DNA from: Escherichia phage phiEco32
Sequence record: NC_010324.1
DNA length: 64,000 nucleotides
Strand: one strand, 5' to 3'
Made by a program: the position numbers and the translations under genes. Below, in pieces: positions 7,459 to 62,290 of this stretch (its first letter is position 1; the number at the start of each line of letters is the position of its first letter). The notes beneath the pieces are model-generated. The model was not told the DNA's origin, searched no databases, and saw only the letters and a program-made list of their open reading frames with translations.

Positions 7459-8517
7459 ATGGCTAATCCAACTTTATTTGTATCGTATGACCAGAATGGT
7501 AAAAAACTTTCTTTTGCTAACTGGATTTCTGTTCTGTCCCCTCAGGATACCCCGTTCGTATCTATGACCGGTAAAGAGTCTATCAACCAGACTATCTTTA
7601 GCTGGCAGACCGATGCACTGGCAAGCGTTGACGGTAATAACGCACACGTCGAAGGCTCTCGTGCTGAAGACGGCGAAATGAAACCGACTGTTATCAAATC
7701 TAACGTTACTCAGATTCTGCGTAAGGTTGTTCGTGTTTCTGATACTGCTAACACCACCGCTAACTACGGTCGTGGTCGTGAACTGATGTATCAGCTGGAG
7801 AAGAAAGGTAAAGAGATCAAGCGTGACCTCGAGAAAATCCTTCTGTCCGGTCAGGCTCGTACCGACGTTCTGGCTGACCAGTATCTGACTAACTCGGCAA
7901 CTGATCCTGCTGTTGTTGGTCTGAATGACACCCATGCAGCTCGTAAGACTGGTGCATTCCAGTTCCTGTGTGCTCACGGTGGTCTGGCTGGTGGCGTTGT
8001 TGACAAGACCAAGAATGGTCCTGCTGACCCGGATACTGGTGCAGTAACTGTTAAAGTTGCACAGAATGCTTCTAACCCGACCACTAACATTGGTTTCGAC
8101 GAAGCTGATATCTTTGATATGACTCTGCAACTGTACACCGCTGGCTCTGAAGCAGATATCATCATGATTAACCCGGCTCATGCTAAGATCTTCGCTGGTC
8201 TGCAAGAAAATACTCAGGGTTCACGTAAGCGTATCTTTGAGAACACCAAGCAGTTCATCTACGAAGTTAACAGCATCACTGACCCGCTGGGCCAGAGCTA
8301 CAAAATCATCGTTAACCGTTGGATGCCTACCGATGCAGTTTACTTCTTCCGTAGCGCTGACTGGACTCAGATGGTTCTGCGTGCTCCGAAACGTACTGAA
8401 CTGGCTAAAGATGGTTCTTACGAGAAGTGGATGATTGAAATGGAAGTTGGTCTGCGTCACCGCAACCCGTATGCTTCCGGCGTTCTGTTCACTGCTGCGG
8501 GAAAGGTGGCGGCGTAA
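7459..8517 (+). CDS. major capsid protein
   Basis: 352 aa, position after scaffold, SD AGGAGC, codon usage typical of the window. Confidence 0.8.
   Translation: MANPTLFVSYDQNGKKLSFANWISVLSPQDTPFVSMTGKESINQTIFSWQTDALASVDGNNAHVEGSRAEDGEMKPTVIKSNVTQILRKVVRVSDTANTTANYGRGRELMYQLEKKGKEIKRDLEKILLSGQARTDVLADQYLTNSATDPAVVGLNDTHAARKTGAFQFLCAHGGLAGGVVDKTKNGPADPDTGAVTVKVAQNASNPTTNIGFDEADIFDMTLQLYTAGSEADIIMINPAHAKIFAGLQENTQGSRKRIFENTKQFIYEVNSITDPLGQSYKIIVNRWMPTDAVYFFRSADWTQMVLRAPKRTELAKDGSYEKWMIEMEVGLRHRNPYASGVLFTAAGKVAA
8499..8505 (+). other. candidate -1 programmed ribosomal frameshift heptamer G_GGA_AAG
   Basis: X_XXY_YYZ heptamer in the capsid frame 10 nt before the capsid stop; the -1 frame is open from 8409 through 9041; hairpin aacagt...actgtt about 10 nt downstream. 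Confidence 0.5.
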
Positions 8518-8528
8518 CAGTAGACAGT

Positions 8529-9041
8529 GTGACTGTTAGCCCTGCGTCTTTAGCAAGTCTAGAGACAGGGGCTACTCGGCAGTTCACTGCAAGCGCGGAG
8601 AAAAGTGATGGTTCTACCGAAACAACTGGCTTTACTTGGTCAGTGACAGGAGGTGGTTCTATCACTCAGTCTGGTTTGTATACTGCTCCGAGTGCGTCTC
8701 AATCCACTGATGTATCCATTACTGCAACTTTAGAAGGTGTTTCTGGTACAGCAATCATTTCTGAAATTGTTGCTCCTGCTCCTACTATTGTAGCTAAGGG
8801 TCCAATTACGGGTAAAACTGGTGGTTCTTCCACTAACTTCACTACCATGTTTACTGTAACTAATTCTACTGCTGCGGATTACACGTTTGTTGTAACCCCT
8901 ACAGAAGCTGGTACAGTAAGCGCCGCTGGTGCGTTAACCTTAGATGCTGCTGCAAGTGGCGAAGTTACTGTTCAAGCTAGTTTGACAGCCACTCCGTCTA
9001 TCAGTGCAACATGCACTTTTACTGGTGTAACACCTGCTTAA
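8529..9041 (+). CDS. Ig-like (Big_2-type) domain ORF, probably expressed as a C-terminal extension of the capsid protein via -1 frameshift
   Basis: No ATG and no SD; the track start is a GTG; the frame is continuous with the slippery site; sequence VTVSPASLASLETGATRQFTA... is typical of Big_2 domains. Confidence 0.5.
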   Translation: MTVSPASLASLETGATRQFTASAEKSDGSTETTGFTWSVTGGGSITQSGLYTAPSASQSTDVSITATLEGVSGTAIISEIVAPAPTIVAKGPITGKTGGSSTNFTTMFTVTNSTAADYTFVVTPTEAGTVSAAGALTLDAAASGEVTVQASLTATPSISATCTFTGVTPA

Positions 9042-9047
9042 AATTAG

Positions 9048-9076
9048 ACCCTGCCTTCGGGCGGGGTTTTTTCGTT
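9048..9076 (+). terminator. hairpin ccctgcc-ttcg-ggcgggg followed by tttttcgtttt
   Basis: GC stem, UUCG tetraloop, U-run; after the Ig-like ORF. Confidence 0.6.
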
Positions 9077-9100
9077 TTAAGACCTATACAAGCCAGTGTG

Positions 9101-9109
9101 TAATGTATA
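9101..9109 (+). promoter_or_regulatory. TAATGTATA motif (candidate phage-sigma-dependent promoter element)
   Basis: Exact 9-mer 33 nt upstream of the ATG at 9143, directly after a terminator; the same 9-mer recurs upstream of other genes. Confidence 0.45.
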
Positions 9110-9142
9110 TTCTTTGTCTACATATAACAAGGAGGACAACCT

Positions 9143-9895
9143 ATGGCAATGCCAGATGTTCAATACCCCATCAATACCTATGGGTGGCTAAAGAAGGCCG
9201 TGGCCCTCTGGGCAGATAGGGACGATGACGAATTTGTTAATCAAATTCCAAACTTTATTAACTTTGCAGAGAAAGAGATTTATCGTAACTTACGTATTCC
9301 TCCTCTGGAAAAAGAAGTGTATTTAGATATCAAAGATGGAGTGGCTTATATTCCTCCTGATTACTTAGAAGCTCAGTGGATGATGAGAGCCAAAGATGGT
9401 ACAATCTTCCAAGTAACCTCTCCTGAGGAGATTAGCTATCGTAGACAGCACGGAACAATTAACCCATCTCACTGGAACAACCAACCTGTTAACTTTGCTC
9501 GTTTCGGGAGTCGTTTCATTTTCTATCCTAGTATTGAAGCAGATACTCCATACTATCCTGATGATGGAAGCCCTTTGATTCCAGCAGAAAACTCAGTGAT
9601 TCTTAGCTATTATGCAGACCCACCGGAATTCCACGAAGATACAGATACGAGTGCTATTCTTACTATCGCACCAGAGCTTCTTCTGTATTTCACCCTACGT
9701 CATGCTTGTCTGTTTGTTCAAGATGATAATGGAGTTCAGAAATGGTCAGCATTAGGAAAAGCTATCCTTGATGAAATAGTAGAGCAGAATAAGAAACAAG
9801 AGTACTCAGGTTCACCTATCGCAATTCCGAATAACATGACTCGACTTCAGAGCAGCTTGCCTGATATTTATGGTATTCGTACTTCTCGTGTATAA
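9143..9895 (+). CDS. virion structural protein (possibly head-tail adaptor)
   Basis: ORF track; SD AAGGAGG; position between capsid module and tail fibers. Confidence 0.5.
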   Translation: MAMPDVQYPINTYGWLKKAVALWADRDDDEFVNQIPNFINFAEKEIYRNLRIPPLEKEVYLDIKDGVAYIPPDYLEAQWMMRAKDGTIFQVTSPEEISYRRQHGTINPSHWNNQPVNFARFGSRFIFYPSIEADTPYYPDDGSPLIPAENSVILSYYADPPEFHEDTDTSAILTIAPELLLYFTLRHACLFVQDDNGVQKWSALGKAILDEIVEQNKKQEYSGSPIAIPNNMTRLQSSLPDIYGIRTSRV

Positions 9896-9904
9896 GGAGA
9901 TAAT

Positions 9905-12547
9905 ATGATCGTTTATAATAACCAAGCACCCGATGCAGTGAATAATGTTGGGCAGTTTGGTGCTACTGAAGGCTCTATTGGAGCTTATAAGCAAGCCGCA
10001 GAATATGCAGCTGACTCTAAATATTGGGCACTGCTAGCAGAATCTAAGTTTGGTACAATTGACGACTTGATTGCTGAAGTAGAACGTCTGTATCAACAGG
10101 GTGTTCTGATGAAGCAAGATATCGAAGATCTTAAGCAGGACTTTAAAGATCAAGATGCTCGTCTGATGGGTTTGGTTGCTCAAACTAACGCAGCAGTTGC
10201 TGATGCGAATAATGCTGTAGCTCTTATTAACCAGAAACTTATTGAAGTCCAGAATCAGCTTGACGTTCTGTTAGGAATGTCCGTTGATGTAACCACACTT
10301 CCTCCGGGAACCCCAGCTACTGGCTCTTTTAATCCGAATACTGGTGTAATTTCTTTAGGTATCCCAGAGGGTGATCCCGGAAAAGACGGTTCTGTTAAAG
10401 ACTTGGATACAGCACCTACTGGTGTTCCAGAGCTAGGTGATTTAGGTTTCTATGTTGATAAAGATGACAACACTGTTCACAAAACTACTCTAGATAACAT
10501 TGCTAACTTAATCCCATCTGTTCGTTCTGTCTCTATTAACGGCGGTCCAGCTCTTGATGGAGAGGTTGCTCTAACACTTAACAAAGAGACGGTAGGTTTA
10601 GGAAATGTTCTGAACGTCGCTCAGTACAGTCGTCAAGAGATTAATGACAAATTTGACAAGACTACCAAGACATACCAATCAAAAGCAGAAGCTGATGCTG
10701 ATGCTCAGTATCGTCAAGTAGGTGAGAAAGTTTTAGTTTGGGAAGCTACTAAGTATGAATTCTATACTGTTGCTGCTAACAAAACACTGACTCCTGTTAA
10801 AACTGAAGGTAGAATTCTTACCGTTAACTCTCGCTCTCCAGACTCAAGCGGTAATATCGATATCACGATTCCAACAGGTAACCCGTCTTTGTATCTTGGT
10901 GAAATGGTAATGTTCCCTTACGACCCATCTAAGAATATCTCCTACCCAGGAGTTCTTCCTGCTGATGGTCGTCTAGTATCAAAAGAATCTGCTTCAGATT
11001 TAGGCCCATCCCTTGTCAGCGGACAGCTCCCTGTTGTTTCAGAAACTGAATGGCAAGCGGGGGCTAAACAGTACTTCTCTTGGGGTAAGTTAGCAGACGG
11101 TATTACCGATGCGGATTCTACTAATTTTATCAACATTCGACTCCCTGATTGGACTGGAGGGGAGGCAATAAGAGCACCAGATTCTGATAAAGACTCTCAG
11201 TACAATGGGTCTGTACAGGCTCAGAAACCTTATGTTGTTACTGTAAATAACCAAGCTCCTGATGAGATTACTGGTAATGTGAACATCTCCAGATCTATCT
11301 TGGGAGCAGCTTCTTCTGGTGCAAACTCTGATATAACATCCCTGACAGGACTCACTACAGCTCTCTCTATCGCTCAAGGCGGTACAGGAGGGAAAACTCC
11401 ATCTGAAGCTAGGGCAAACCTGAATCTTGAAAGATTTCAACAAGACAATTCGCAGACTTTGATATATTCTCCTGATTATGCCCGTCGTGTTTATGTTGAC
11501 AACACTGGTGGTTCTTGGGGGTGCCAGAACGTAACAGATGGCGGTTTTATTGCTCTTGGTATTCCTCAAGGGGGTACGGGAGCTAAGGATGCTGCTGGTG
11601 CACGAAGCAATCTCGGTTTGGGTTCAGTGTCCACGCTAAACAATATACCCGTAGCTAATGGAGGTACTGGAGCAACTACTGCTGCTGGTGCTCGTTCCAA
11701 CTTAGGTCTCGGGAGTGTTTCTACTCTAGATAACGTCCCTATTGCTAGCGGTGGGACAGGTGCTGGGGATGCTGCTGGTGCAAGGTTTAACCTAGGGTTG
11801 GGGAGTTCAGCTACTCTAAACACTGGAACTACCAGCGGTAATGTTCTTAAGGTTGGTGATTTTGGAATTGGAAGACCTGATGGTGCTCTTGTTTTTGATA
11901 CTACTTCACAAGACCAACTTCTTGCTGGACTTGACACTTATGGGCTGTGTGTGTTTAGGAATAACCAACAAATAGCAGCACCTTGGGATATATGGAACTA
12001 CTCCTCAAACCTCTTCTTTAGGGCAGGAGACACATACAGTATGATAAGTATTCCGTTTGAGTCTGCCGGTAAGATAAAAGTTTTTGGTGGTGCAGCAGGC
12101 AGTGGGTGGAAAACCTCAAGGACGGTATATGATACCGTAAATACAACTGTTGACGTCAATGGCTTTATCAAAGCAGCGTCACCGATAGTTAAGGTATTCC
12201 ATGACGGAAGTTTTGAAACAAACGAACAATCTGATGGAGTTAGTGTTAAGAAAATCTCCACCGGGGTTTATTTAATTTCAGGGTGTCTTGGTCTTAATTC
12301 TGATGCAGGATGGGGTGGTGTAGATGGAGGTTTTGAAATCCCAATAGACCGAAACAAACAACCTAGAGTTTGGCTTGACTATGAGGTTAAAGAGGATGGT
12401 TCTCTTTTAATTAAAACTTATCATAGAACCCATTCAACATCCCCAGCTTTTGCTAGAAACGAGTTGGAAGGTTTTTCTGACGGAGACCCTGTTGACATTC
12501 CTAAGGATGCGTTCATTTCGGTTCGTGTTGAAATGCCTTCTAAGTAA
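9905..12547 (+). CDS. tail fiber protein with internal tandem repeats
   Basis: 880 aa; three 30-aa GGTGAxxAAGARSNLGLGSVSTL repeats typical of phage fiber repeats; SD AAGGAGA. Confidence 0.7.
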   Translation: MIVYNNQAPDAVNNVGQFGATEGSIGAYKQAAEYAADSKYWALLAESKFGTIDDLIAEVERLYQQGVLMKQDIEDLKQDFKDQDARLMGLVAQTNAAVADANNAVALINQKLIEVQNQLDVLLGMSVDVTTLPPGTPATGSFNPNTGVISLGIPEGDPGKDGSVKDLDTAPTGVPELGDLGFYVDKDDNTVHKTTLDNIANLIPSVRSVSINGGPALDGEVALTLNKETVGLGNVLNVAQYSRQEINDKFDKTTKTYQSKAEADADAQYRQVGEKVLVWEATKYEFYTVAANKTLTPVKTEGRILTVNSRSPDSSGNIDITIPTGNPSLYLGEMVMFPYDPSKNISYPGVLPADGRLVSKESASDLGPSLVSGQLPVVSETEWQAGAKQYFSWGKLADGITDADSTNFINIRLPDWTGGEAIRAPDSDKDSQYNGSVQAQKPYVVTVNNQAPDEITGNVNISRSILGAASSGANSDITSLTGLTTALSIAQGGTGGKTPSEARANLNLERFQQDNSQTLIYSPDYARRVYVDNTGGSWGCQNVTDGGFIALGIPQGGTGAKDAAGARSNLGLGSVSTLNNIPVANGGTGATTAAGARSNLGLGSVSTLDNVPIASGGTGAGDAAGARFNLGLGSSATLNTGTTSGNVLKVGDFGIGRPDGALVFDTTSQDQLLAGLDTYGLCVFRNNQQIAAPWDIWNYSSNLFFRAGDTYSMISIPFESAGKIKVFGGAAGSGWKTSRTVYDTVNTTVDVNGFIKAASPIVKVFHDGSFETNEQSDGVSVKKISTGVYLISGCLGLNSDAGWGGVDGGFEIPIDRNKQPRVWLDYEVKEDGSLLIKTYHRTHSTSPAFARNELEGFSDGDPVDIPKDAFISVRVEMPSK
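11569..11838 (+). repeat. intragenic 3 x 90-bp tandem repeat inside tail fiber gene
   Basis: Protein-level repeat GGTGA(K/T/G)..AAGAR(S/F)NLGLGS(V/S)STL x3; a degenerate fourth copy lies upstream. Confidence 0.6.
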
Positions 12548-12556
12548 ATTAACAAT

Positions 12557-12572
12557 GCTCCCTTCGGGGAGC
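12557..12572 (+). terminator. hairpin gctccc-ttcg-gggagc (UUCG tetraloop), weak U-run
   Basis: Perfect 6-bp stem between tail fiber genes; only TTT follows, so may act as stabiliser or attenuator. Confidence 0.35.
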
Positions 12573-12587
12573 TTTAAGGAGATTTAA

Positions 12588-14756
12588 ATGGCTAGAGAAT
12601 TAATGCCCAAATCTGGTATAATGATGCCTCATGTGGTTGTAACCAGAGATGCGGCTGTTGTTGGTGTTTCTACCGTAGATGGACAGGCAGGGGCTATTGA
12701 CCTCACTGGAAAGTATCTACAGAAAACTGACGCAGCTGCTACCTACCAGACTAAAACAGAAGGCGCATCTAAAGATTTTGTGCTGGATTCAATTCAACCT
12801 ATTATGTCTGGTGCTTTGTTCCGAGAAGATCCTTGGGTTGTGAACGACACACCTTTCCGCTCTACTGGAGCTAACGGAGTAGAGTCAGTGGATATGATGA
12901 AGGTCACTCCTGATAACTCAATTAAGATTGGCAGCTATGCTTCCTCGGTTCAAGGCGTAGAAATTCATTCTGCTGGTCGTCTTCAGGTTGTTGACCAGAA
13001 TGACAGTGGTGTAGAAACTAAGTATCCAGTTTATTCTAAACGTTATCGTCCCGAGATTGAGGATTTACCTTTCGCTGCGATTGGCTCTTATGTTAAAGAC
13101 TCCAAGGGCCGTACTATAGGTGTTAATCGTACAGGGATTAACTCTGATATCAAACAACTTACCCAGAAGGTAACTTTCACTCAACCAGTAACTGTCCCTG
13201 ATGCAGTTGGTGATTATGATGCCGTCACTTTGAGGCAACTTCGTAACAGTGGTGGTGGTTCTGGCGGTCCTACGATGAGTGGTATCTCTAACTTTGGTAT
13301 TGGTGATTTCCATTTACGTGACAGTCGAGCTTTCATCCCAGCTTTTGAAGTAGTGTCTGACGGACAGCTTTTGAACCGTGCGGATTATCCCGACCTGTGG
13401 GCATATGCTCAGTTGTTGTCACCTATAGAAGACTCTGAATGGGTGAGTAATGTTTATCAAAGAGGTAAGTATTCTAAGGGAAATGGCACAACTACTTTCC
13501 GTGTCCCTGACAGAAACGGTGTACAATCTGGTTCTATTCAAGGTCTTTTCGGGAGAGGTGATGCTGGTTCTTCTGGTAGCAATGGGGTTGTATCAGATTC
13601 TGGTGCACCAAATATCACATACTCATCTCCTCATACAATGGTAACACTCGCCTCTGCTTCGGGGCAGGTGGCAACTAATGGAGCAATCCAATCAATCACA
13701 TCTACAGACGATGTGGCTCCAGTAGGGACTGGAGGTAAATATATATCCACAAACTTTGACGCATCGCGTTCCAGCGCTGTTTACGGTCGTTCTCTTTCTG
13801 AGGTAGTTCCTCGCAACTTTATTGGTGTTTGGACTATCCGTGCTCATGGAGGGTTTACTGCTGCTAACACTTCTTGGTCTGTTATTAATAGTGATGCTTC
13901 AGAACAACCTACAGGTACACCAATTACTGGTGGGTTGGTTTCCTCTAAATATGTAGTTGGAGGTGTTGATAAATACCGGTCCTCTATCCAGTTGCTAGGG
14001 TCTAATGAAGTTGATCTATCAACTAGAATTACCACCATAAATGATAGATATGCTATTGGGGCTGCAACTTGGGATTTTAAATTAGACGGTAAACTTCTTT
14101 TCAACAAGAGCCTGACTCCTAAGGGGACAGGGGAATCTCCGGGAAATACTTATTTAACACTAGCTAACACTTGGATGAGTGCTGCATACAGTGGATACAT
14201 AGGGTTTGTTGGTGGTGGGGTTGGGGTTTCTAATGGTGGTTGGAGAAACTTTATTTCTTTAGGCTCTCTAATCTTCCCAGACTCCAGTCACCCAACTGCT
14301 GTTATTTCTCAGGTTTATGACTATGACCTTTCTACAGGAAGCCAACCTAATGGAGACATTGTCAGAAATACCTATTTCAGTGCTGAGAGCTACGATATTA
14401 CCTTCGGGAACAACAGTGGGACTACTAATTACATCTTCAGTAAATCTCCAGTCTCTGACGAACGACTCAAACATAGCATTAAGGAAGAAGGGACAGCCAC
14501 AGCTCTTTCTAACCTAAATAAGATGGAGTATAAAACCTTTATCTATAATTATGATGAGAAAGCAACTGTAAGGCGTGGGTTTATTGCCCAACAACTTGAA
14601 GCTATTGACCCTCAATATGTTAGGAAGTATAAAACCTTCAAAGGTACTGATACCCTAGCTTTAGATGAGAATGTGTTGCTTTTAGATGCAATTGCTGCTA
14701 TTCAAGAGCTTACCAAAAAGGTTGAGGTTTTAGAAGCAAAATTGGCAGAGAAGTAA
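12588..14756 (+). CDS. tail fiber / tailspike with C-terminal intramolecular-chaperone (peptidase S74-like) domain
   Basis: C-terminal ~100 aa SDERLKHSI...RRGFIAQQLEAIDPQYV...LLLDAIAAIQELTKKVEVLEAKL matches the auto-cleaving chaperone domain of endosialidase-type fibers; SD AAGGAG. Confidence 0.7.
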   Translation: MARELMPKSGIMMPHVVVTRDAAVVGVSTVDGQAGAIDLTGKYLQKTDAAATYQTKTEGASKDFVLDSIQPIMSGALFREDPWVVNDTPFRSTGANGVESVDMMKVTPDNSIKIGSYASSVQGVEIHSAGRLQVVDQNDSGVETKYPVYSKRYRPEIEDLPFAAIGSYVKDSKGRTIGVNRTGINSDIKQLTQKVTFTQPVTVPDAVGDYDAVTLRQLRNSGGGSGGPTMSGISNFGIGDFHLRDSRAFIPAFEVVSDGQLLNRADYPDLWAYAQLLSPIEDSEWVSNVYQRGKYSKGNGTTTFRVPDRNGVQSGSIQGLFGRGDAGSSGSNGVVSDSGAPNITYSSPHTMVTLASASGQVATNGAIQSITSTDDVAPVGTGGKYISTNFDASRSSAVYGRSLSEVVPRNFIGVWTIRAHGGFTAANTSWSVINSDASEQPTGTPITGGLVSSKYVVGGVDKYRSSIQLLGSNEVDLSTRITTINDRYAIGAATWDFKLDGKLLFNKSLTPKGTGESPGNTYLTLANTWMSAAYSGYIGFVGGGVGVSNGGWRNFISLGSLIFPDSSHPTAVISQVYDYDLSTGSQPNGDIVRNTYFSAESYDITFGNNSGTTNYIFSKSPVSDERLKHSIKEEGTATALSNLNKMEYKTFIYNYDEKATVRRGFIAQQLEAIDPQYVRKYKTFKGTDTLALDENVLLLDAIAAIQELTKKVEVLEAKLAEK

Positions 14757-14760
14757 TATA

Positions 14761-14776
14761 AGCCCCTTCGGGGGCT
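14761..14776 (+). terminator. hairpin agcccc-ttcg-ggggct (UUCG tetraloop)
   Basis: Perfect 6-bp stem right after the stop; weak T-run. Confidence 0.35.
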
Positions 14777-14848
14777 TTAGTAGTAAGTACCCTTAGTAAG
14801 TAATGAAACTAATATATCCCAAGAGGTTAATATATAGGAGACACTCAA

Positions 14849-15067
14849 ATGAAAATGATGAAACAAGCTGCATACGGTTTAATATGTTTAGGTGCAGGCG
14901 TTGTGGTATCAACCGCAGTCCCTGTAGGCGCAGTTCATCCATTAGTAACTGTCCCTGCTCCAGTAGAGAAGCTCAGCTCTCAATGCAAGCAGAGAACAAT
15001 TCAAAATAACCTAGTTGTTATTTGTCCTGATGCTGAATCTAACGCTCTGAGAAAGATACTACCTTAA
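14849..15067 (+). CDS. small membrane protein, candidate holin
   Basis: 72 aa; N-terminal hydrophobic segment AAYGLICLGAGVVVSTAVPVGAV; immediately upstream of the endolysin; SD AGGAGA. Confidence 0.35.
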   Translation: MKMMKQAAYGLICLGAGVVVSTAVPVGAVHPLVTVPAPVEKLSSQCKQRTIQNNLVVICPDAESNALRKILP

Positions 15068-15096
15068 TTTAAAGGGACTACAAAAGGAGGTTAGAA

Positions 15097-15588
15097 ATGG
15101 ATAACGTCGCATTGCCACCTGTACAACTAAACTTAAGCCCAGCTGGAATGGAATTCATCATGAAGCATGAGGGTATGAGAACAAAGGCTTATAAAGATTC
15201 CGCAGGTATCTGGACTATATGTGTAGGGGCTACGCGCGATATGAATGGTTATCCGGTTAGACAAGGATTAACGTATTCTATAGAGGATTGTCTAGCTCTG
15301 CTAGATAGAGACACACAAGACTCTGTTCGTGCTACTCAGAAGAACATAAAGGTTCCTTTACTAGTTCATGAGTTTGATGCACTCACTTCTTTCAACTTCA
15401 ATGTTGGCAGTGGGGCTTTGAGCACATCTAAGTTAAGGAAGGTTATCAATGGAGAAGTGAAAGGTGATGTATATTCCGAATTTCTTCGTTGGGATAAAAT
15501 AACGGTCAAGGGAGAGAAGCAGAGAAGTCAGGGTCTTCATAATAGAAGGGTTGCAGAAGCTGATCTTTACACCGAAGGTAAATATTAA
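15097..15588 (+). CDS. endolysin, T4-lysozyme-like (GH24) muramidase
   Basis: Catalytic pattern E-8aa-D-5aa-T in MKHEGMRTKAYKDSAGIWTICVGAT; no signal sequence; SD AAGGAGG. Confidence 0.85.
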   Translation: MDNVALPPVQLNLSPAGMEFIMKHEGMRTKAYKDSAGIWTICVGATRDMNGYPVRQGLTYSIEDCLALLDRDTQDSVRATQKNIKVPLLVHEFDALTSFNFNVGSGALSTSKLRKVINGEVKGDVYSEFLRWDKITVKGEKQRSQGLHNRRVAEADLYTEGKY

Positions 15589-15600
15589 TGGAGGTGCCTT

Positions 15601-16404
15601 TTGGCTATCGAAACTAATGCGGTAGTTATTACCGACTTAAACCCACTCTATCCTAGAGACAGGGATTACATCTACGAAGGGGCGGCTCAAATCCGCCTCA
15701 TTAAGCAAACGTTACAGAACACATTCCCCAATGTTACAGAACCGGTTGATATAGATTCTGACACCTTTAAGATTATGTCAGAGAAGCTCAAGTTTACTGG
15801 TGATGCAATGGATGTTGGTGGTCTTATGATCAAGAACGTTACTCCGGGAACTGGTGACAAGGATGTTGTTACTAAAGGTCAGATGGAAGCGTTCATGAAG
15901 AACTGGATGGAGAATAAGCTCTATCGAATTGGTTCTTACTACATCACTGAAGAAGACATTAACCCCGGTGATTCAATCTCCTTAGGGTTTGGTTCTTGGG
16001 CTAAAGTGACTGGTGTCATTATGGGTACTGGTGTAGTAAACCCTGATGGCTCTGTTCCTAATGCTCAGAGAGTTGAGTTCCAAGCAGGTGGTACTGGTGG
16101 TCGTGTCTTCAATACTATTCGAACTGAGAACGTACCTTTGATGACTGTTAATGGCTCCAGCTTCTCTCTATCTAGTAATACTCACAGTCACAATATGGTA
16201 TTTGGTCGTGGAGATGCTAGTGGTCATAACAGCTCACCAAACTGGTATAGTCCGGGTGGTGGTTACAGCCAGAGAACTGATAATGACACACATACTCATA
16301 CAATCTCTGGTAGTGTAAGTCTTGGTCGTGATGATATCTCTCGTCAACCTATTAACACTTTGCCACCATTCAGAGCAGCTCACATTTGGAGACGTATTAG
16401 CTAA
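15601..16404 (+). CDS. tail fiber protein with tail-collar-like C-terminal domain
   Basis: TTG start with SD GGAGGTG 4 nt upstream; His/Gly/Ser-rich C-terminus resembling phage tail collar domain. Confidence 0.5.
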   Translation: MAIETNAVVITDLNPLYPRDRDYIYEGAAQIRLIKQTLQNTFPNVTEPVDIDSDTFKIMSEKLKFTGDAMDVGGLMIKNVTPGTGDKDVVTKGQMEAFMKNWMENKLYRIGSYYITEEDINPGDSISLGFGSWAKVTGVIMGTGVVNPDGSVPNAQRVEFQAGGTGGRVFNTIRTENVPLMTVNGSSFSLSSNTHSHNMVFGRGDASGHNSSPNWYSPGGGYSQRTDNDTHTHTISGSVSLGRDDISRQPINTLPPFRAAHIWRRIS

Positions 16405-16413
16405 GGAGGAATT

Positions 16414-19400
16414 ATGGCGCTGTATCCAATAAAGTCATTAGGTGCTGTAGGCGTTATCGCTGATCAGGCTCCGACAGACTTAGCTCCTAATGCTTTCACT
16501 AATGCTATAAATGCTCGATTTGTGGAGCAGAGAGTATTTAAGACGGGGGGCAATGCCCCTCTTTCTTATGTAGATGAAGATAAGGATTTAACCCCTCTGT
16601 CTTTCATTTCTATGCCTTTCGATTATTATAGCGCAGGTAATAGCTTTCTTGTTGTAGGTACGGATAAGAAGTTATATAAACTGACAGATGAAAGCTTGAC
16701 TGATATTAGCCGTAAGGTTGCTACAGTCACTAAAAAGGCTTCTGCCTCAATTAAGATTTATCCGGTTGTTTCTCAGATTGTTCCTAAAGAATCAACCATC
16801 TCAATGAACTTCAATCAGACCAAGAATCTAGAGGTTTCTCTTCTTCCTGCTGATGCCAACAATACCGATCTTGTTTGGGAGGTTAGTAACTCATCTTATG
16901 GAAGTATTACAGTAGACCCTAGTGACTCTAAACTTGCTACTCTAACATCTTTTGAGAAAGAGGGTAATCTTGTAGTAACTATCTCTACTGCCAATGAATC
17001 CGTAGTGGCTCAGATTGCTGTTAATATCATAGATGGTGATTCAGGCATCTTCTTGAGTCAAGATACTGTTACAATTCGTAAGGGAGGGACTACTACTCTC
17101 ACGGCTGTTACTGGCAAGACTCCTGTAACTTGGTCCAGCAGTAACGCTTCTATTGTATCCGTAACCCCTAACGCCAACTCTTTAACTGCTGTCATTACAG
17201 CGAATGGAGAAGGTAATGTAACAATCACTGCTGATAACGGGACTAAGACTGCTTCTTGTGAGATTGTTTCTATCCCTCAGATTGATAGTATCTCTTTAAG
17301 CCAGTCAGATGTTACTGTGAGTAGAGGTTCTCAGTACATCTTAACTGCTACCCTTTCTCCTGCTAACGCCCCTAATCAAAATATTACTTGGACCTCTTCT
17401 AATCCAAATATTGCAACAGTATCAGGGACTAGCACACAAGGGACGATCAACGCTCTACTTGCTGGTTTTACTGAGATTACAGCTACCACTGAAGAAGGCA
17501 ACAGGATTGCTGTCTGTACTGTACGTGTAGATTTAGCTGGGAGGACAATGAGAACAAGTGCTATGGCATTTGCCGCTCCTGTGTCAGAGTCAGTAGAAAC
17601 TCAAGAGGAAGAAGTAGTAACTCCTCCTGAAAGTGAAGAGACGGTTTATTTTGCTGAGCCTACATCTGGTATTGATACATCAGGGATGTACGAAGGTAAT
17701 AACTTCTACGATTACTCTAACGTGAATGACATTGAAGGTTTTGCAAGAGCTTCTTTACTGGCAACCCCTCTGTCATCTGTAACCTTAGATATTGTCAGCG
17801 CTTCTCTTGATGTTGGTGAAGAGATTGTCATTACAGCCACAGCTTCTCCAGAAGGTGAGTACTCTTATCAGTGGTCTGTTGATAAAACTGGTTATGTTTC
17901 TACAACCTCAGTTACTGGTAAATCTATCAAACTGGTTGCTCTTCGTAAAGGAGAGATTAACGTAACATGTACTGTCAGTCAGATGACTCAGAAGGATTAC
18001 GATGCTTTTGATGACTACCCTTGGTATCACGCTGTTATCTCTAACTGTGCAGTTGCTACAACTCACTATGAAACTCCTCAGGTAAAAGAATTCGAATCAG
18101 AATACTTTGTAGACCTTCCGGGGTGGGGTGAGCAAACAGTTGTTGATAATGATGGAAACCCTTCAGTCAAGAAGTTTAACTGGAAATGTGAGAGAGTAAG
18201 ATCTTTTAACAACCGTCTTTTTGCTCTGAATATGAGAGAGGCTAACGCTTCTGGTGTTACCACTAACTACCCTCTTCGTCTTCGTTGGTCTAACTTTGCC
18301 AACGAGAACAAGGCTCCTACACTGTGGGATGACTTTGCCTATGATCGAGTTGTGTCTTCGGACTTAGCTTCTAACATCGTAGGGCAGACTCAGGCTCTAG
18401 AGAATGGGTATGCTGGTTACATCGACTTAGCAGATTCTAATGGTAGCTTGATTGATATCCTACCTCTTAAAGATTACTTGTTCGTTTATACAGAGTTTGA
18501 AACGTATATTGGTTCTCCGACTAATAACACGTACCAACCTCTAATGTTCAAGAAGCTCTTTAACGACTCTGGTATCCTTGCTCCCGAGTGTGTGGTTGAA
18601 GTAGAAGGTAGTCATTTCGTAGTTACTCAGAACGATGTAATCTTACACAACGGTGCAACCAAGAAGTCAATTGCATCTAACCGTGTTAAGAATATGTTGA
18701 TTAATGAGGTGTGTCTGGTTAATCCTCTAGCAACTCGAGTACACTTGCATCAGGATAAGAAAGAAGTTTGGGTTCTCTATGTAGGACCGGGGGAGCCAAA
18801 AGAAAGCTTCGCTTGTACTAAAGCTGCTGTATGGAACTACGAGTTTGATACTTGGTCTTTCCGTACTATCCCATATGCTCAGTGTATTGGTCTGGTTGAT
18901 CCTCCTGTTTTAGAAAGAGGTCCAATCTGGTCTGACTTCCAAGAAATCACTTGGGATGACCCATCTATTAAAGAACTCGTTTGGAGAAAGGATGCAACAA
19001 ACTTTAGACAGAGGGTTACGATAGTAGGTTCATTCTTGAAGGGATTCTATCAAGTGGATGTAGGTGCTCTTGATTATTTCTATGACAGGCTAAATGATGT
19101 TGTTATAGAGAAGCCTCTGGAAATGAGGTTGGAGAGGACTGGTATAGATTTTGATAATGTGACTAATGAGTGGAATCAGAAGCATATTAACAGGTTCCGG
19201 CCTCAGACAACCGGTTCAGGTACTTACATATTTGAAGCTGGTGGTAGTCAATTCTCAAATGAATACGGACACCCACACACATCTAAGACATATACGATCG
19301 GTGTTGACAGGCACGTCTCGGTGAGACTGAACCATCCATACCTTTTCTATAATGTTATAGATAATGATGTTAACAGTAATGCTGCTATCAATGGTTTAAC

Positions 19401-19431
19401 GATAGAGTTTGCTGTTGGCGGGCGGAGATAA
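16414..19431 (+). CDS. large tail protein with multiple Big_2 Ig-like domains
   Basis: 1005 aa; repeated WSSSN..V..VT..G..TA...G.VTITA..G motifs typical of Big_2 domains; SD AAGGAGG. Confidence 0.65.
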   Translation: MALYPIKSLGAVGVIADQAPTDLAPNAFTNAINARFVEQRVFKTGGNAPLSYVDEDKDLTPLSFISMPFDYYSAGNSFLVVGTDKKLYKLTDESLTDISRKVATVTKKASASIKIYPVVSQIVPKESTISMNFNQTKNLEVSLLPADANNTDLVWEVSNSSYGSITVDPSDSKLATLTSFEKEGNLVVTISTANESVVAQIAVNIIDGDSGIFLSQDTVTIRKGGTTTLTAVTGKTPVTWSSSNASIVSVTPNANSLTAVITANGEGNVTITADNGTKTASCEIVSIPQIDSISLSQSDVTVSRGSQYILTATLSPANAPNQNITWTSSNPNIATVSGTSTQGTINALLAGFTEITATTEEGNRIAVCTVRVDLAGRTMRTSAMAFAAPVSESVETQEEEVVTPPESEETVYFAEPTSGIDTSGMYEGNNFYDYSNVNDIEGFARASLLATPLSSVTLDIVSASLDVGEEIVITATASPEGEYSYQWSVDKTGYVSTTSVTGKSIKLVALRKGEINVTCTVSQMTQKDYDAFDDYPWYHAVISNCAVATTHYETPQVKEFESEYFVDLPGWGEQTVVDNDGNPSVKKFNWKCERVRSFNNRLFALNMREANASGVTTNYPLRLRWSNFANENKAPTLWDDFAYDRVVSSDLASNIVGQTQALENGYAGYIDLADSNGSLIDILPLKDYLFVYTEFETYIGSPTNNTYQPLMFKKLFNDSGILAPECVVEVEGSHFVVTQNDVILHNGATKKSIASNRVKNMLINEVCLVNPLATRVHLHQDKKEVWVLYVGPGEPKESFACTKAAVWNYEFDTWSFRTIPYAQCIGLVDPPVLERGPIWSDFQEITWDDPSIKELVWRKDATNFRQRVTIVGSFLKGFYQVDVGALDYFYDRLNDVVIEKPLEMRLERTGIDFDNVTNEWNQKHINRFRPQTTGSGTYIFEAGGSQFSNEYGHPHTSKTYTIGVDRHVSVRLNHPYLFYNVIDNDVNSNAAINGLTIEFAVGGRR

Positions 19432-19435
19432 CAAC

Positions 19436-19462
19436 AAGGGGCTTCGTGCCCCTTTTATTGTT
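19436..19462 (+). terminator. hairpin ggggc-ttcgt-gcccc followed by ttttattgtttt
   Basis: GC stem plus U-run right after the stop at 19431. Confidence 0.55.
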
Positions 19463-19474
19463 TTGGAGGAACTT

Positions 19475-20443
19475 ATGGGTGCAGGTGGTTTTCGTAAGAA
19501 CACTGGTCGCAACAACACCACACTCCCGTACAACGTTGGGTTTCTCAATAATGTACAGGACACAGAAACATATAACGTAGCCGTGTATGATGAATTACAA
19601 AAAGTTAGCACAGCTACTAACCAAATGTTCCAAGCTATAGATGAAATTCACGAAGAGATTGATGTTCGTATTAAAGCTCTTAATGCAATGAATCTACAAT
19701 TTGATGAGCTTGAGAATAGAATTACTACAGAGATAGAAACAGCTATTGCAGATATCCAAACCCAGATGGGGAACCTGTCCACTGAGGACATTTGGGATAA
19801 CTCTGTTCAACCTCCTGTGAAGCTGGAAAGCACTGTATCTGGTTTTAAGACTAGCATCGAAGGTAACACAACTAAGATTCAGACAGTAGAAGGTATTGTT
19901 AACGATCAAGGTCAAGAGATTGCTCTTGTTCAGACAGAACTGCAAAATATCAACGGAAGCCTTTCTCAGTATATGAAACTCTCTGAGTATGAAGCTACGT
20001 GGGGTGTTAACTCTACAGTCAACGGAAGATATGCTGGGGTCAAGTTAACTAACAACGGAACAAACAGTCAATTTCAAGTAACAGCTAACAAATTTATTGT
20101 TGGTGATGGCAGCTCTGGGAATACTCCATTCGTATTTGAGGGTGGGCGAGCTAGGATGGAATTCGCTGATATAAAGAACGTCAATATCACAACAGCTCAG
20201 ATTGCTAACGCTAGAATCCAATGGGCACAGATTGATAACGTATCTATCTCCAATGCTCAGATTCAGAACTTATCAGCGGATAAGATTACTGCTGGTTCTA
20301 TGTGGGGTTCTAACTGGAGACTTACTGTTGGTGGTGATTTTGTTATGGGAGGCACAGGTGGGGCACAATTGTGGATGAATGGTAACAGAATAGACTTCTA
20401 CGATGGAAGTGGTGCTCTAAGAATCAGGATAGGGAGTTGGTAA
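19475..20443 (+). CDS. tail fiber / structural protein (coiled-coil N-terminus)
   Basis: Track ORF starts at 19409 but that start lies inside the terminator; ATG at 19475 has SD GGAGGAA. Confidence 0.5.
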   Translation: MGAGGFRKNTGRNNTTLPYNVGFLNNVQDTETYNVAVYDELQKVSTATNQMFQAIDEIHEEIDVRIKALNAMNLQFDELENRITTEIETAIADIQTQMGNLSTEDIWDNSVQPPVKLESTVSGFKTSIEGNTTKIQTVEGIVNDQGQEIALVQTELQNINGSLSQYMKLSEYEATWGVNSTVNGRYAGVKLTNNGTNSQFQVTANKFIVGDGSSGNTPFVFEGGRARMEFADIKNVNITTAQIANARIQWAQIDNVSISNAQIQNLSADKITAGSMWGSNWRLTVGGDFVMGGTGGAQLWMNGNRIDFYDGSGALRIRIGSW

Positions 20444-20444
20444 T

Positions 20445-21476
20445 ATGGCATATGGAATATGGACACAACCAGTAGGGCCGGGGCCAGCAACCCCCGCTCC
20501 TTTATTTATTGATAGTGGGAGTACTTTCCCTCAGTTCAAGAATAGTATAAGAGGGAGTTTTAACTTTAATGGAGCTGGGAGATCTTTCCCTATCAGTGGA
20601 TGGGATGGCAGTGGTCAGATAGTTATTGTTCCTACTGGTTCTTTATGCTGGCAATGGGAAGTCCCTCCTAACTTAGTTCCTGATGTTTATTGTGTGAATA
20701 ATATCTACGTAGAAAACAACTCCTCTTTTAGGGTTACTTTGAATCAGAACCCCGGTAGTAATCCACTATTCGACTGTGGGTTCAACGTATACCAAATATG
20801 GCCTAGAGCAGATAGGAATTATGGAATTACCTTTTCCAATACAGCAGACTACTTCTCAATATCTGATAGTGGGGTCGTCGGTCAGTGTATTTGGGCTTGG
20901 CAGGGAACTATAGGTAATTCTCTTCAAATACCAAATATTGGTGGTTTTAATATGGCTAATGCTGTTGTGTTTGCTAACTGGTCTGACGGAGGGATTGGCT
21001 TATCTTACACATCTGATGACAGAATTATTCGCGTCTATCAGAACAGGCCTTATGTCAACGGAAATACTAATGAAGGAGGGTCTGTCTTTGCTAGGGTTGC
21101 CGTATTCTGTAACGGAGCCGGTGTTCCTGAGCATAATGGAGGTTTGAACATTTACTCTCCGGGTACCACACAATGTGTCTTCTCTACTAACAGAACACCT
21201 TTCACTGTGGATACTTTTATAGGCTCAGGAGGTGGTAACACGGGAATGTCATACCCTATGATACCTCTTACCTCTGGAATAGGTGCAATAAAAGGCCAAG
21301 GTAGTGGATGGAGATATCAGCAAATGAGATCTCACACCATGAGTGGTTCTACTATAGGAACTGGCTATGGGAGGTATTTGTTTCAGTGGGATCAAAATTA
21401 TGACCTAGGAGCTGATACTGTAGTTAATTTATCAGTTCCTGTAATAAATGCAGCTAAGGTTTTTGCTGGACTATAA
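20445..21476 (+). CDS. virion structural protein
   Basis: ORF track; SD GGGAG; Gly/Asn/Ser-rich. Confidence 0.5.
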   Translation: MAYGIWTQPVGPGPATPAPLFIDSGSTFPQFKNSIRGSFNFNGAGRSFPISGWDGSGQIVIVPTGSLCWQWEVPPNLVPDVYCVNNIYVENNSSFRVTLNQNPGSNPLFDCGFNVYQIWPRADRNYGITFSNTADYFSISDSGVVGQCIWAWQGTIGNSLQIPNIGGFNMANAVVFANWSDGGIGLSYTSDDRIIRVYQNRPYVNGNTNEGGSVFARVAVFCNGAGVPEHNGGLNIYSPGTTQCVFSTNRTPFTVDTFIGSGGGNTGMSYPMIPLTSGIGAIKGQGSGWRYQQMRSHTMSGSTIGTGYGRYLFQWDQNYDLGADTVVNLSVPVINAAKVFAGL

Positions 21477-25993: not shown

Positions 25994-26013
25994 GACCTAA
26001 GTCCTGCCTTCTA

Positions 26014-26022
26014 TAATGTATA
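26014..26022 (+). promoter_or_regulatory. TAATGTATA motif (candidate phage-sigma-dependent promoter element)
   Basis: Exact 9-mer 38 nt upstream of the ATG at 26061. Confidence 0.45.
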
Positions 26023-26060
26023 TAGGGGGTAGGACATTTTTATTTATAAAAGGAGACGTT

Positions 26061-31099: not shown

Positions 31100-31466
31100 T
31101 TTCCATCTTAGTTTTTAGTTTATGACAAGGGTCTTTACACAGAACCTGAAAACCTTCTTTCTCACACAGAGCACGAGAGATGATTTCGTCCCAAGTTGCT
31201 TCATGATCAAGAGGAACTATAGGATCTATGTGGTCAATAGCCATATCCTTTACAGGGTGGTCAGAACCACACATGGCACACTTAAAGTGCATTGCCAGTC
31301 TGCCTGTCTTTGGATTAATCTTCTGCTCTGTCTTGGCGTCTGCTAGTGCATCGAACATGGGCTTCCACTTTCTAGTCAGAGAACGAATCCCTGACTTGAT
31401 GAAAGAGTTATAACGAGCTTCAGTCCACTGATTACTGCATCTTGTTTTATTAGCCTTCATTTGCAT
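31062..31466 (-). CDS. HNH endonuclease (zinc-finger type)
   Basis: Motif CAMCGSDHPVKDMAIDHIDPIVPL...LCKDPCHKLK; track ORF extends to 31586 but the likely start is the Met at 31466 or 31460. Confidence 0.6.
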   Translation of the reverse strand: MQMKANKTRCSNQWTEARYNSFIKSGIRSLTRKWKPMFDALADAKTEQKINPKTGRLAMHFKCAMCGSDHPVKDMAIDHIDPIVPLDHEATWDEIISRALCEKEGFQVLCKDPCHKLKTKMENDARKQFKKGNE

Positions 31467-38425: not shown

Positions 38426-38430
38426 CTTAT

Positions 38431-61686: not shown

Positions 61687-61839
61687 TTACTCCTGTTGTT
61701 TACACTCGTCAATAACCCACTGATAAGTGGATTGCCCAGAAAAGAAACACTGAATAAATCCAGATGTTCTCTGCGTTACCAGTGCTAGTGCACAAATCAC
61801 TACCGCTGCTGCTAGCAGTTTTAAATCTAATTTAGACAT
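61687..61839 (-). CDS. small protein with hydrophobic N-terminus (50 aa)
   Basis: Not in the ORF track; MSKLDLKLLAAAVVICALALV...; SD AGAGGAA. Confidence 0.35.
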   Translation of the reverse strand: MSKLDLKLLAAAVVICALALVTQRTSGFIQCFFSGQSTYQWVIDECKQQE

Positions 61840-62074: not shown

Positions 62075-62290
62075 CTAAAAATCACTTGATTTTACAAAAT
62101 CATCACTAAGGATTTCGTCAATTTCTTTGTTAGTCAAATCTTTCCTGAACCAACAACAAGGTACATCCACCCATTGACCAGAGTTATTTTCTACAGAGCA
62201 TCTATTGCCTGTCTTACTCTTGCACTTATAGGTCTTACCTTTGTCTAGACGATAGTGTATTCTATAAACGATCGACACAAGTGTTATCAT
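62075..62290 (-). CDS. small Cys-rich protein (71 aa)
   Basis: ORF track. Confidence 0.45.
   Translation of the reverse strand: MITLVSIVYRIHYRLDKGKTYKCKSKTGNRCSVENNSGQWVDVPCCWFRKDLTNKEIDEILSDDFVKSSDF

Follow-up and report, generated by a model that had tools for sequence, protein, structure and literature searches.

UUCG-looped hairpins at the 3' ends of late genes in a phiEco32-like coliphage as candidate terminators and mRNA 3'-end elements

The DNA considered here, a stretch of 64,000 nucleotides referred to as the window, is on sequence comparison a phiEco32/SU10-like Kuravirus coliphage, with an identity of 91−96% to Kuravirus genomes (about 96% for SU10 and PGN6866). Between positions 9042 and 19474 intergenic DNA makes up ~335 of 10,433 nt, and each of the four intergenic gaps of at least 40 nt in this stretch contains one hairpin. 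The hairpins, here denoted J1 (9046−9069), J2 (12557−12572), J3 (14760−14777) and J4 (19436−19454), all start 3−9 nt past the stop codon of a + strand late gene, i.e., the capsid-Ig gene, tail fiber gene 1, tail fiber gene 2 and the gene of a 1005-aa virion protein, respectively. The surrounding genes were assigned with PHROGs as major head, Ig domain, virion structural, two tail fibers, holin, endolysin and tail proteins. An initial annotation had placed G+C stems with TTCG loops after 9041, 12547, 14756 and 19431, with a good U-run at only some of them; all four were found in the sequence as described, and the U-run is present at J1 and J4 but not at J2 and J3.

J1 starts 7 nt beyond the stop codon (9039−9041) of the Ig-like extension of the major capsid gene. 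Its core, ccctgcc-UUCG-ggcgggg (9049−9066), comprises 7 bp including one G·U and is extendable to 10 bp; folded with its flanks, the hairpin reaches −21.7 kcal/mol (z −3.9). The U-run that follows, TTTTTTCGTTTT (9067−9078, + strand), is kept in all relatives, and the tail yields an nT of 4.8 and a d-score of +41 (formula of d'Aubenton-Carafa/Lesnik). An exact match to the late promoter element of the phage sigma factor gp36, TAATGTATA, lies 35 nt past J1 (9101−9109, + strand) and is invariant in the relatives; both motif and position have been reported, between SU10 CDS10 and CDS11 and for phiEco32 gene 13 (PMC4281155, PMC4331800).

The second hairpin, J2 (gctccc-UUCG-gggagc), starts 9 nt past the stop codon of fiber gene 1 and ends 3 nt 5' of the AAGGAG Shine-Dalgarno sequence (12576−12581) of fiber gene 2. 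Its z-score with flanks is −3.7, and its tail, TTTAAGGAG, runs into the Shine-Dalgarno sequence with UUU only after the stem (TTTAAGG), at a d-score of −6.5. J3 (aagcccc-UUCG-ggggctt) is found 3−4 nt past the stop codon of fiber gene 2 and 71 nt from the holin start codon; its tail, TAGTAG (TTTAGTAG), offers UUU only, counting the stem's own TT (d-score −12), and its stability with flanks does not exceed that of shuffled sequence (z −1.0). J4 (aaggggc-UUCGU-gcccctt) follows the stop codon of the 1005-aa protein gene by 4−6 nt, and its U-run, TTTTATTGTTTT (19453−19464, + strand), runs into the GGAGG Shine-Dalgarno sequence (19465−19469) of the tail-needle gene (ATG at 19475). The J4 tail, TTATTGTTTT, has an nT of 4.4 and a d-score of +25, and the pattern TTTT[AC]TTGTTT is conserved in the relatives.

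Both strands of the whole window were scanned for stems of at least 5 bp with at least 4 G−C pairs closing a TTCG(T) loop. Seven hairpins were obtained, a number far above chance, as 300 dinucleotide-preserving shuffles gave 0.09 on average and never more than 2. The TTCG has the mRNA sense in 7/7, and over three phages sense orientation is found in 13/13 (window, 7; Salmonella phage 7-11, 5; Proteus phage Privateer, 1), with none antisense. Outside the late region, agaagctgcc-UUCG-ggcggctttt followed by CUUGU (38404−38427, − strand; z −3.1) occupies a 47-nt gap between two middle genes. A hairpin within an HNH endonuclease gene (31374−31396) is a doubtful member, and an intergenic one at 62038−62061 (− strand) is not a simple terminator; it forms the first helix of a conserved, structured noncoding element of ~200 nt (61850−62070, − strand), which is more interesting than the hairpins themselves.

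The family likeness seen earlier among the four junction hairpins holds for the motif and not for descent. The C(UUCG)G loop is exact in J1, J2 and J3, while at J4 it is c-UUCGU-g in the window and c-UUCG-g in six relatives (MLP3, SU7, KBNP1711, ECBP2, PAS59 and EK010; TTCGT in the others). The stems are unalike, and a direct-repeat search gave no repeat family linking J1−J4, the common sequence being CTTCG(G) only; the sole exception is a 14-mer of the J1 core, CTGCCTTCGGGCGG, present again in the 38404 hairpin (at 38409, − strand). A REP-like dispersed repeat was considered and rejected, because extended homology is absent among the four and the 14-mer joins only J1 and the 38404 hairpin. 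A comparison of the whole window with Rfam 15 gave 0 matches at the gathering score. In ViennaRNA, UUCG, GAAA, UUUU and UUCGU loops on the J4 stem have nearly equal energies; because these energies do not separate the loops, arguments from UUCG stability draw on published thermodynamics, not on the present calculations.

Covariation was assessed in 15 relatives, which supply only 5−6 distinct sequences per set. The TTCG loop persists through the changes in the stems, which covary and show 9 double-compensatory pairs (J1, 2; J2, 2; J3, 3; J4, 2), and pairing is found in 93−100% of cells (100% at J1 and J2), in 26−79% with the 3' partner shifted by 1−3 columns. At J2, for example, gctccc/gggagc alternates with gccctc/gagggc, and at J3 the stems are aaccctc/gagggtt in WFI101126 and ccccgc/gcgggg in L016, both with the TTCG loop. 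Where the upstream fiber module has been replaced, a different hairpin stands at the same place (at J2 in Paul, with a GAAA loop; at J3 in XT18, with a 12-bp stem; and in WFI101126 and L016). The U·G and G·U pairs of the J1 stem can form in the sense RNA only and are mismatched on the opposite strand. Because the loop is kept, the stems covary and these wobbles pair in one sense only, selection acts on the RNA; the sequence comparison supports RNA elements under selection at cistron 3' ends.

With stems of 5−10 bp, 4−6 G−C pairs and loops of 4−5 nt, all four fall within the range of intrinsic-terminator hairpins (stem about 5−14 bp, loop 3−8 nt), and yet they make up two classes, two with a U-run and two without, which speaks against the one shared role that had been suggested for them. 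Intrinsic terminators also carry a U-rich tract of about 7−9 nt next to the stem on its 3' side. At J1 and J4 the G+C hairpin directly adjoins a stretch of 10−12 nt with 10 U, i.e., judged by sequence, these two have the full anatomy of an intrinsic terminator, and a terminator scan of the + strand called these two. J2 and J3 have d-scores below the classical terminator score.

The arrangement of promoters bears on how complete any termination could be. Exact matches to the late-promoter motif are found on the + strand of the window only at 9101 and 26014, and in SU10 late promoters were reported only before CDS4, CDS11 and CDS24. The second match (26014−26022) lies in the loop of a 14−15 bp hairpin (26001−26047, + strand; −21 to −23 kcal/mol) that is followed by AUUUUUAUUUAU and has three G·U pairs pairing in the sense strand only. 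J2−J4 are thus located inside a unit of ~17 kb that begins with the promoter at 9101 and ends with the terminator/promoter at 26001−26047, and therefore must be leaky. Matches with one mismatch number 20 (including 14828, 19549 and 23028) against 17 expected by chance, and undetected internal promoters within the late unit are possible. The earlier proposal of partial terminators is supported by the anatomy of J1 and J4, whose counterparts are annotated as terminators in relatives, and by the partial action that the layout requires of J2−J4.

Taken together, these observations are best accommodated by four separate stem-loops on the mRNA strand, of which J1 and J4 are intrinsic terminators, J2−J4 are leaky, and J2 and J3 are weak terminators at most that also protect 3' ends; we assign this reading a probability of about 0.72. 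J1 and J4 would act on the host RNA polymerase as Rho-independent terminators. J1 would close the head-gene transcript just ahead of the phage-sigma late promoter at 9101, which would restart transcription for the tail genes. J2, J3 and J4 would stop only a fraction of the polymerases, most likely acting as partial terminators combined with barriers to 3' exonucleases; at J2 and J3 the UUU-only tails suggest weak termination at most, and the main effect of these two is probably a nuclease-resistant 3' end for the upstream fiber mRNAs. Each upstream cistron would then be more abundant than later ones. The nearness of each hairpin to the preceding stop codon probably adds to the leakiness, since a ribosome still on that codon makes it harder for the stem to fold. 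In E. coli, repression of terminator tR2 is nearly complete in vivo at 8−9 bp past a stop codon, and its efficiency reaches ~0.9 beyond 30 bp (PMC4824070); J1−J4, at 3−9 nt, lie at the distance where tR2 is almost inactive. The literature searched contained neither mapped 3' ends nor an RNA-seq coverage step nor an in vitro termination assay for any kuravirus.

The same observations could be read as purely post-transcriptional, such that J2−J4 do not terminate in vivo and PNPase or RNase II, acting on read-through transcripts or on ends cut by endonucleases in the A+U-rich spacers, trims back to the hairpins, which would stabilize the upstream segment and make mRNA levels differ. REP/BIME and similar 3' stem-loops can guard the mRNA preceding them against 3' exonucleases and can make the genes of one operon differ in expression; REPs, however, are homologous repeats, while the common feature of J1−J4 is the loop only. 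Such a model would account for J2 and J3 without a U-run, for the read-through needed by the downstream genes and for the use of the most stable tetraloop known, and termination should in any case be repressed so near to stop codons. It leaves unexplained the long, conserved U-runs at J1 and J4, which an exonuclease barrier does not need, and the promoter directly after J1, which is the classical terminator−promoter layout. We consider this alternative unlikely, if the strongest of those discussed here.

A more speculative and rather doubtful extension would make the hairpins translation-gated attenuators that travel with exchangeable tail-fiber modules. The terminating ribosome would block folding, so that the fraction of polymerases stopped would report upstream translation and tune the ratios of capsid, fiber, lysis and needle mRNAs, and every receptor-binding module of the coliphage gene pool would have a cUUCGg 3' end of its own, serving as well as a homology-neutral joint for swaps.

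A translational function, in which the hairpin would free the next ribosome-binding site from competing structure or couple stop and start codons, is suggested by the 3 nt between J2 and AAGGAG, by the J4 U-run that reaches GGAGG, and by phage 7-11, where aaggggc-TTCG-gcccctt is directly followed by TTTAAGGAGG. An outer A-U helix can also form at J2, joining the stop-codon region to the spacer before the AUG, but it is weak and not conserved. As the next Shine-Dalgarno sequence is 60−70 nt away from J1 and J3 and the conserved U-runs are left unexplained, this function is improbable for the set.

The hairpins could also act at the DNA level, either by steering the recombinational exchange of receptor-binding (fiber) modules, as conserved linkers or ends of cassettes, or as palindromic protein-binding sites. 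At J1−J3 the final 200 nt of the gene before the hairpin frequently show no relation from one phage to another (57−70% identity, global alignment), the hairpin spacer is 77−99% identical, often above the next gene, and breaks in homology adjoin the 38404 and 62038 hairpins as well. Modules that simply end at terminators predict the same mosaic pattern, however, and J4 is not at a mosaic boundary, the stems have no common sequence, and in several phages the hairpin was swapped along with the module. Together with the 13/13 sense-only orientation and the presence of G·U wobbles, this makes a DNA-level role very improbable. Processing sites were among the roles first proposed. Those of the RNase III type, as found between T7 late genes, share with J1−J4 the position between late cistrons, but RNase III substrates require about two helical turns, i.e., ~20 bp of duplex RNA in which an internal loop is common, and stems of 5−10 bp without internal-loop motifs or an Rfam match fit so poorly (at J1, with its A-U flanks, the helices sum to 18 bp but are interrupted and weak, the longest continuous helix being 10 bp) that we give this reading almost no weight.

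As terminators or attenuators, the hairpins would be of an ordinary kind already known since the 1980s. In T7, the terminator T-phi follows the major capsid gene, as does J1, which also precedes a promoter. J1 and J4 resemble the intrinsic terminators of E. coli and its phages, e.g., tR2 of lambda, from which J2 and J3 differ by having UUU only. The annotated terminators in the records of SU10 (KM044272), Paul (MN045231) and WFI101126 (NC_070991) are the same sites, predicted by software (FindTerm, ARNold): J1 in all three records and in the S2 table of SU10 (as aactagaccctgccttcgggcggggttttttcgtttt), the J4 counterpart in Paul and WFI101126, and the hairpin before the holin gene (the J3 position) and the homologue of the 38404 hairpin in WFI101126. 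J2 is unmarked in these three records, and the GenBank records inspected contain no remark on a common UUCG loop or on covariation.

Intergenic CUUCGG hairpins are plentiful in T4 and other phages and have been proposed to act in termination, to stabilize mRNA and to nucleate folding (Tuerk et al. 1988, PNAS 85:1364, cited in PMC8948821; reviewed in PMC4371310). The T4-type hairpins resemble J1−J4 in being short, G+C-stemmed, sense-oriented, intergenic structures of a lytic coliphage with a C-G-closed UUCG loop; the present ones differ in phage lineage and in the UUCGU pentaloop at J4. In phage 7-11, which is phiEco32-like, a (X)5GUUCGG(Y)5 hairpin was found upstream of the sigma gene at a primer-extension stop, which the authors attributed to processing or to a stall of reverse transcriptase, and the hairpin was proposed to boost transcript stability (PMC8948821). 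It shares the UUCG loop between genes and differs in place, being in the middle/early arm before the sigma gene; no such hairpin was found upstream of the sigma gene of the window (34166−34813).

The finding matters little beyond annotation, where it places the predicted late transcript ends in kuraviruses, phages that are held in phage-therapy collections and serve as a model for phage sigma factors. The late unit, from 9101 to about 26040, would hold three internal leaky stops, and the set illustrates cleanly, on a small scale, how stems covary around an unchanging UUCG loop. Should capsid, fiber and lysis mRNA ratios depend on the hairpins, a fiber gene exchanged to alter host range ought to be moved together with its 3' hairpin.

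About 100 phage genomes match bases 8500-20500, with PH444, PGN6866 and vB_EcoP_SU10 as the closest (~96% identity), and these phages are members of Kuravirus (phiEco32-like), i.e., E. coli podophages with elongated heads. The + strand up to ~30.5 kb holds the late structural and lysis genes, and beyond this point the - strand holds the middle and early genes. The four hairpins with a TTCG(T) loop that the initial annotation had placed between late genes, here referred to as J1-J4, are all present at exactly the positions assigned to them. Typing of the surrounding + strand open reading frames by PHROGs shows that J1 (core 9049-9066; ccctgcc-TTCG-ggcgggg, followed by TTTTTTCGTTTT) lies 7 nt past the stop codon that ends the Ig-domain extension (8529-9041) of the major head protein (7459-8517). 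Right before the stop codon of the major head gene is GGGAAAG (8500-8506, +). The record of phage Paul gives this as the site of the programmed frameshift by which the head protein is joined to the Ig-like domain that reaches to 9041, and J1 is therefore located behind the extended capsid gene. Next are the genes of a virion structural or gatekeeper protein (9143-9895) and tail fibre 1 (9905-12547), and 9 nt past the stop codon of the latter is J2 (12557-12572, +; gctccc-TTCG-gggagc), followed by TTTAAGGAG, a Shine-Dalgarno sequence. J3 (14760-14777, +; aagcccc-TTCG-ggggctt, then TAGTAG) starts 3-4 nt past the stop codon of tail fibre 2 (12588-14756) and precedes the holin gene (14849-15067), which is separated by the endolysin and tail protein genes from that of a 1005-aa virion protein (16414-19431). 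J4 (19436-19454, +; aaggggc-TTCGT-gcccctt, then TTATTGTTTT) is located 4-6 nt past the end of this gene, in front of that of the tail fibre or needle protein (19475-20443).

Two further features of this region were observed. In MLP3, PAS59 and XT18 an HNH homing-endonuclease gene (L003 1444-1956, L008 2145-2657 and L012 2123-2635, respectively, equivalent to just after 9142 in the window, which is without it) resides between the J1 terminator and late promoter and the gatekeeper gene. Tail fibre gene 1 harbors, at 11560-11802 (+), three copies of a 63-nt unit at 90-nt spacing (65-71% identical), which correspond to a repeated 30-residue fibre segment.

When the 64 kb were scanned on both strands, seven G+C stems that close a TTCG(T) loop were identified, compared with a mean of 0.09 and a maximum of 2 in 300 dinucleotide-preserving shuffles, which excludes a chance origin. 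Intergenic DNA in 9042-19474 amounts to only ~335 nt, where each of the four gaps of at least 40 nt carries a hairpin and none of the four gaps of at most 29 nt does. The remaining three TTCG hairpins are found on the - strand, sense to the local genes; two of them (38404-38427 and 62038-62061) lie between genes, and the third (31374-31396), within an HNH endonuclease gene, is probably incidental. A direct-repeat search revealed no family linking J1-J4, their common sequence being CTTCG(G) only, and Rfam yielded no match for the hairpins. A 14-mer of the J1 core, CTGCCTTCGGGCGG (9051-9064, +), recurs at 38409-38422 (-) inside the 38404-38427 terminator, and this second copy is almost the same as the J1 variant that phages 172-1 and NJ01 carry (AAGCTGCCTTCGGGyGGCTTTTCTTGT), which suggests an exchange or common descent of terminator modules. 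An automatic scan also located intergenic hairpins with other loops (GUUG at 1646, UCCG at 35787, AAUA at 42556 and GAAA at 52387), and UUCG is therefore the favoured cap rather than the sole one. Energy calculations did not distinguish the UUCG loop as special.

The same region was compared in 15 relatives from Kuravirus (including SU10 and NJ01), Suseptimavirus and Nieuwekanaalvirus, together with a distant metagenomic contig (L016), which was one of five loci obtained when IMG/VR was scanned with the tail protein. Another of the five, L017 (IMGVR_UViG_3300020112_002876), is an unrelated viral contig with a weak tail-protein match; it carries at least 10 hairpins of the form gccgcca-AACA-tggcggc between genes, each followed by GGCnGGACnGAGGC (e.g., 478-1578, 5319-5336 and 7614-7631), i.e., a dispersed intergenic repeat. 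A hairpin is found at J1 and J4 in all relatives and at J2 in every relative with two fibre genes, some (WFI101126, XT18 and L016) having a single one. The pre-holin hairpin at the J3 site is intact in all except myPSH2311, a genome with many truncated open reading frames, where folding of the TTCG site is lost (-2.3 kcal/mol). The loop is TTCG in all relatives at J1, TTCG or TTCGT at J4, and, except where the hairpin is replaced or damaged, TTCG at J2 and J3. With another fibre C-terminus the site can hold another hairpin, such as cccctctc-GAAA-gggagggg at J2 in Paul or, at the J3 site in XT18, a large loop on a 12-bp stem.

Among the relatives, the stems of J1-J4 display compensatory changes. 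MAFFT placed gaps wrongly in such short alignments, and the sequences were re-cut symmetrically around the loop, with artificial anchor flanks, declared unpaired, to fix the register. In these loop-anchored alignments, J1 has nine pairs with all cells paired, two of which are changed on both sides, and one position occurs as C-G, G-C and A-U. Two double-change pairs were found in J2 (gctccc/gggagc vs gccctc/gagggc), three in J3 (agcccc, accctc and ccccgc) and two in J4 (ggggc vs ggagc). When the 3' partner was slid by 1-3 columns as a control, pairing fell to 26-79% at each site. Each set is small, comprising 5-6 distinct sequences, and the pattern is alike at all four sites.

J1 and J4 display complete intrinsic-terminator anatomy, and both were called on the + strand by a terminator scan. 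The classical terminator score (formula after d'Aubenton-Carafa and Lesnik) is +41 for J1 and +25 for J4, compared with -6.5 for J2 and -12 for J3, both of which have three U only. The J1 sequence is one of four terminators listed for SU10 (PMC4281155, table S2) and is also marked in the SU10 record; the Paul record has terminators at J1 and J4, and that of WFI101126 (ARNold) at J1, the pre-holin hairpin, J4 and the homologue of 38404. J2 is marked in none of the relatives' records examined. A terminator-like hairpin is also seen at 16545-16561 (+; ggggggc-AAT-gcccctc, then TTTCTTATG), ~130 nt into the gene of the 1005-aa virion protein. NJ01 retains it, as does L016 with another loop, and it may only reflect the coding sequence for Gly-Gly-x-Ala-Pro-Leu.

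Late promoters of the phiEco32-like group are recognised by the phage sigma factor gp36, share tAATGTATA and in SU10 are located before CDS4, CDS11 and CDS24 (PMC4281155, PMC4331800, PMC12276001). On the + strand of the window, exact matches are found at 9101 and 26014, and a copy with one mismatch at 1677, after another hairpin. The match at 9101 is 35 nt past J1, which is thus part of a terminator-promoter pair, and J2, J3 and J4 reside inside the unit that starts there. This unit ends at a long hairpin (26001-26047, +; 14-15 bp, three G·U, ~-21 kcal/mol, then AUUUUUAUUUAU / ATTTTTATTTAT) with the exact promoter motif TAATGTATA (26014-26022) within its loop. A read-through RNA would hold the whole hairpin, and an RNA begun at the 26014 promoter would miss its 5' arm; ATG 26062, rather than 26016, is probably where the 1488-aa gene truly starts.

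The holin, endolysin, tail, needle and internal virion genes downstream of J2-J4 have no known promoter of their own, and J2, J3 and J4 therefore cannot be efficient stops. A simple reason may be found by analogy with E. coli tR2, which is almost fully repressed when it starts 8-9 bp past a translated stop codon, where the ribosome impedes hairpin folding, and regains an efficiency of ~0.9 beyond 30 bp (PMC4824070); all four of J1-J4 start 3-9 nt past a stop codon. The phage protein gp79 occupies the polymerase's RNA exit channel, and is unlikely to be an antiterminator since transcripts made in vitro by RNAP-gp36 with gp79 still end at rrnB T1 (PMC12276001). A search for an additional late promoter downstream of J3, with which J3 would form a terminator-promoter pair as J1 does, gave near-matches only (TAATGAAAC at 14802 and TAATATATA at 14828), and one-mismatch copies occur at chance frequency. 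The second of these is right before the holin Shine-Dalgarno sequence. In the 14800-14836 (+) region, 26 nt past the J3 hairpin, 12 of 13 relatives retain the motif GTAATGAAACTAnTATATC, and its core AATGAA has one mismatch to the gp36 core AATGTA; it could be a weak lysis-gene promoter or the start (ATG 14803) of a small upstream open reading frame.

The position, conservation, strand, anatomy and layout of the hairpins were established directly; as regards termination, its efficiency and mRNA stabilisation, we infer that transcripts of the head gene would end at J1, insulated from the tail-gene promoter, and that J4 would be a partial terminator. J2 and J3 would attenuate weakly, and would probably act mainly by leaving the fibre mRNAs with a nuclease-resistant 3' end. 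The literature searched gave neither 3'-end nor coverage data for kuraviruses. A plausible alternative, which overlaps with this mechanism, is that J2-J4 act purely post-transcriptionally, but the conserved U-runs of J1 and J4 speak against it. A translational role, e.g., insulation of a ribosome-binding site, is consistent with J2, with J4 and with a hairpin of phage 7-11 that is followed by TTTAAGGAGG, but not with J1 or J3.

The coding strand of the local genes reads TTCG, never CGAA (7/7 in the window, five in Salmonella phage 7-11 and one in Proteus phage Privateer). In most relatives J1 contains U·G and G·U pairs, which on the opposite strand would give C·A mismatches, and what is conserved across the hairpins is the C(UUCG)G cap, which has no protein partner and is more stable than any other known RNA tetraloop (PMC4371310). 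These features point to the transcript rather than the DNA; a protein-bound DNA palindrome or a cruciform would not give such strand asymmetry. A mosaic pattern (9905-14756 and relatives L001-L016) suggests that the hairpins could serve as recombination joints: the final 200 nt of the Ig-domain gene and of each fibre gene are frequently unrelated from one phage to another, while the hairpin-bearing spacer right behind them is 77-99% identical. However, the strand asymmetry, the lack of a common sequence and the even identity around J4 speak against such a joint, and we would argue that each module simply ends at its terminator. The stem length excludes RNase III sites.

Rather than being a simple terminator, the UUCG hairpin at 62038-62061 forms the first helix of a conserved non-coding element (~200 nt; 61850-62070, -) between the open reading frames 62075..62290 and 61687..61839. 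The element folds with an MFE of -76 kcal/mol (z -3.8 vs shuffles), and ends in its own hairpin and U6; 102 phage records contain it, among them those of Salmonella phages from another family. Its counterpart in one of these, phage 7-11 (L020 399-644), is 72.5% identical in nucleotides, with proteins ~30% identical. RNAalifold applied to a five-phage alignment gave 62 consensus pairs, 10 of which show compensatory double changes, and a perfect DnaA-box 9-mer, TTATCCACA, is invariant. The element is not a tRNA, and Rfam gave no match even when E values of up to 5 were allowed. Candidate identities are a phage small RNA, a structured 3' UTR and a DnaA-binding DNA element, and it merits separate study.

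J1-J4 belong to the same class as the CUUCGG hairpins described in intercistronic regions of T4 and other phages (Tuerk et al. 1988, as cited in PMC8948821). The group working on phiEco32-like phages has already reported one such hairpin, in phage 7-11, and discussed the class (PMC8948821), and public records of close relatives mark terminators at three of the four sites. The hairpins are therefore known in kind and largely in instance; J2, the common loop and the covariation appear to be unreported. If J1-J4 act as terminators and attenuators, the mRNA level would step down cistron by cistron.
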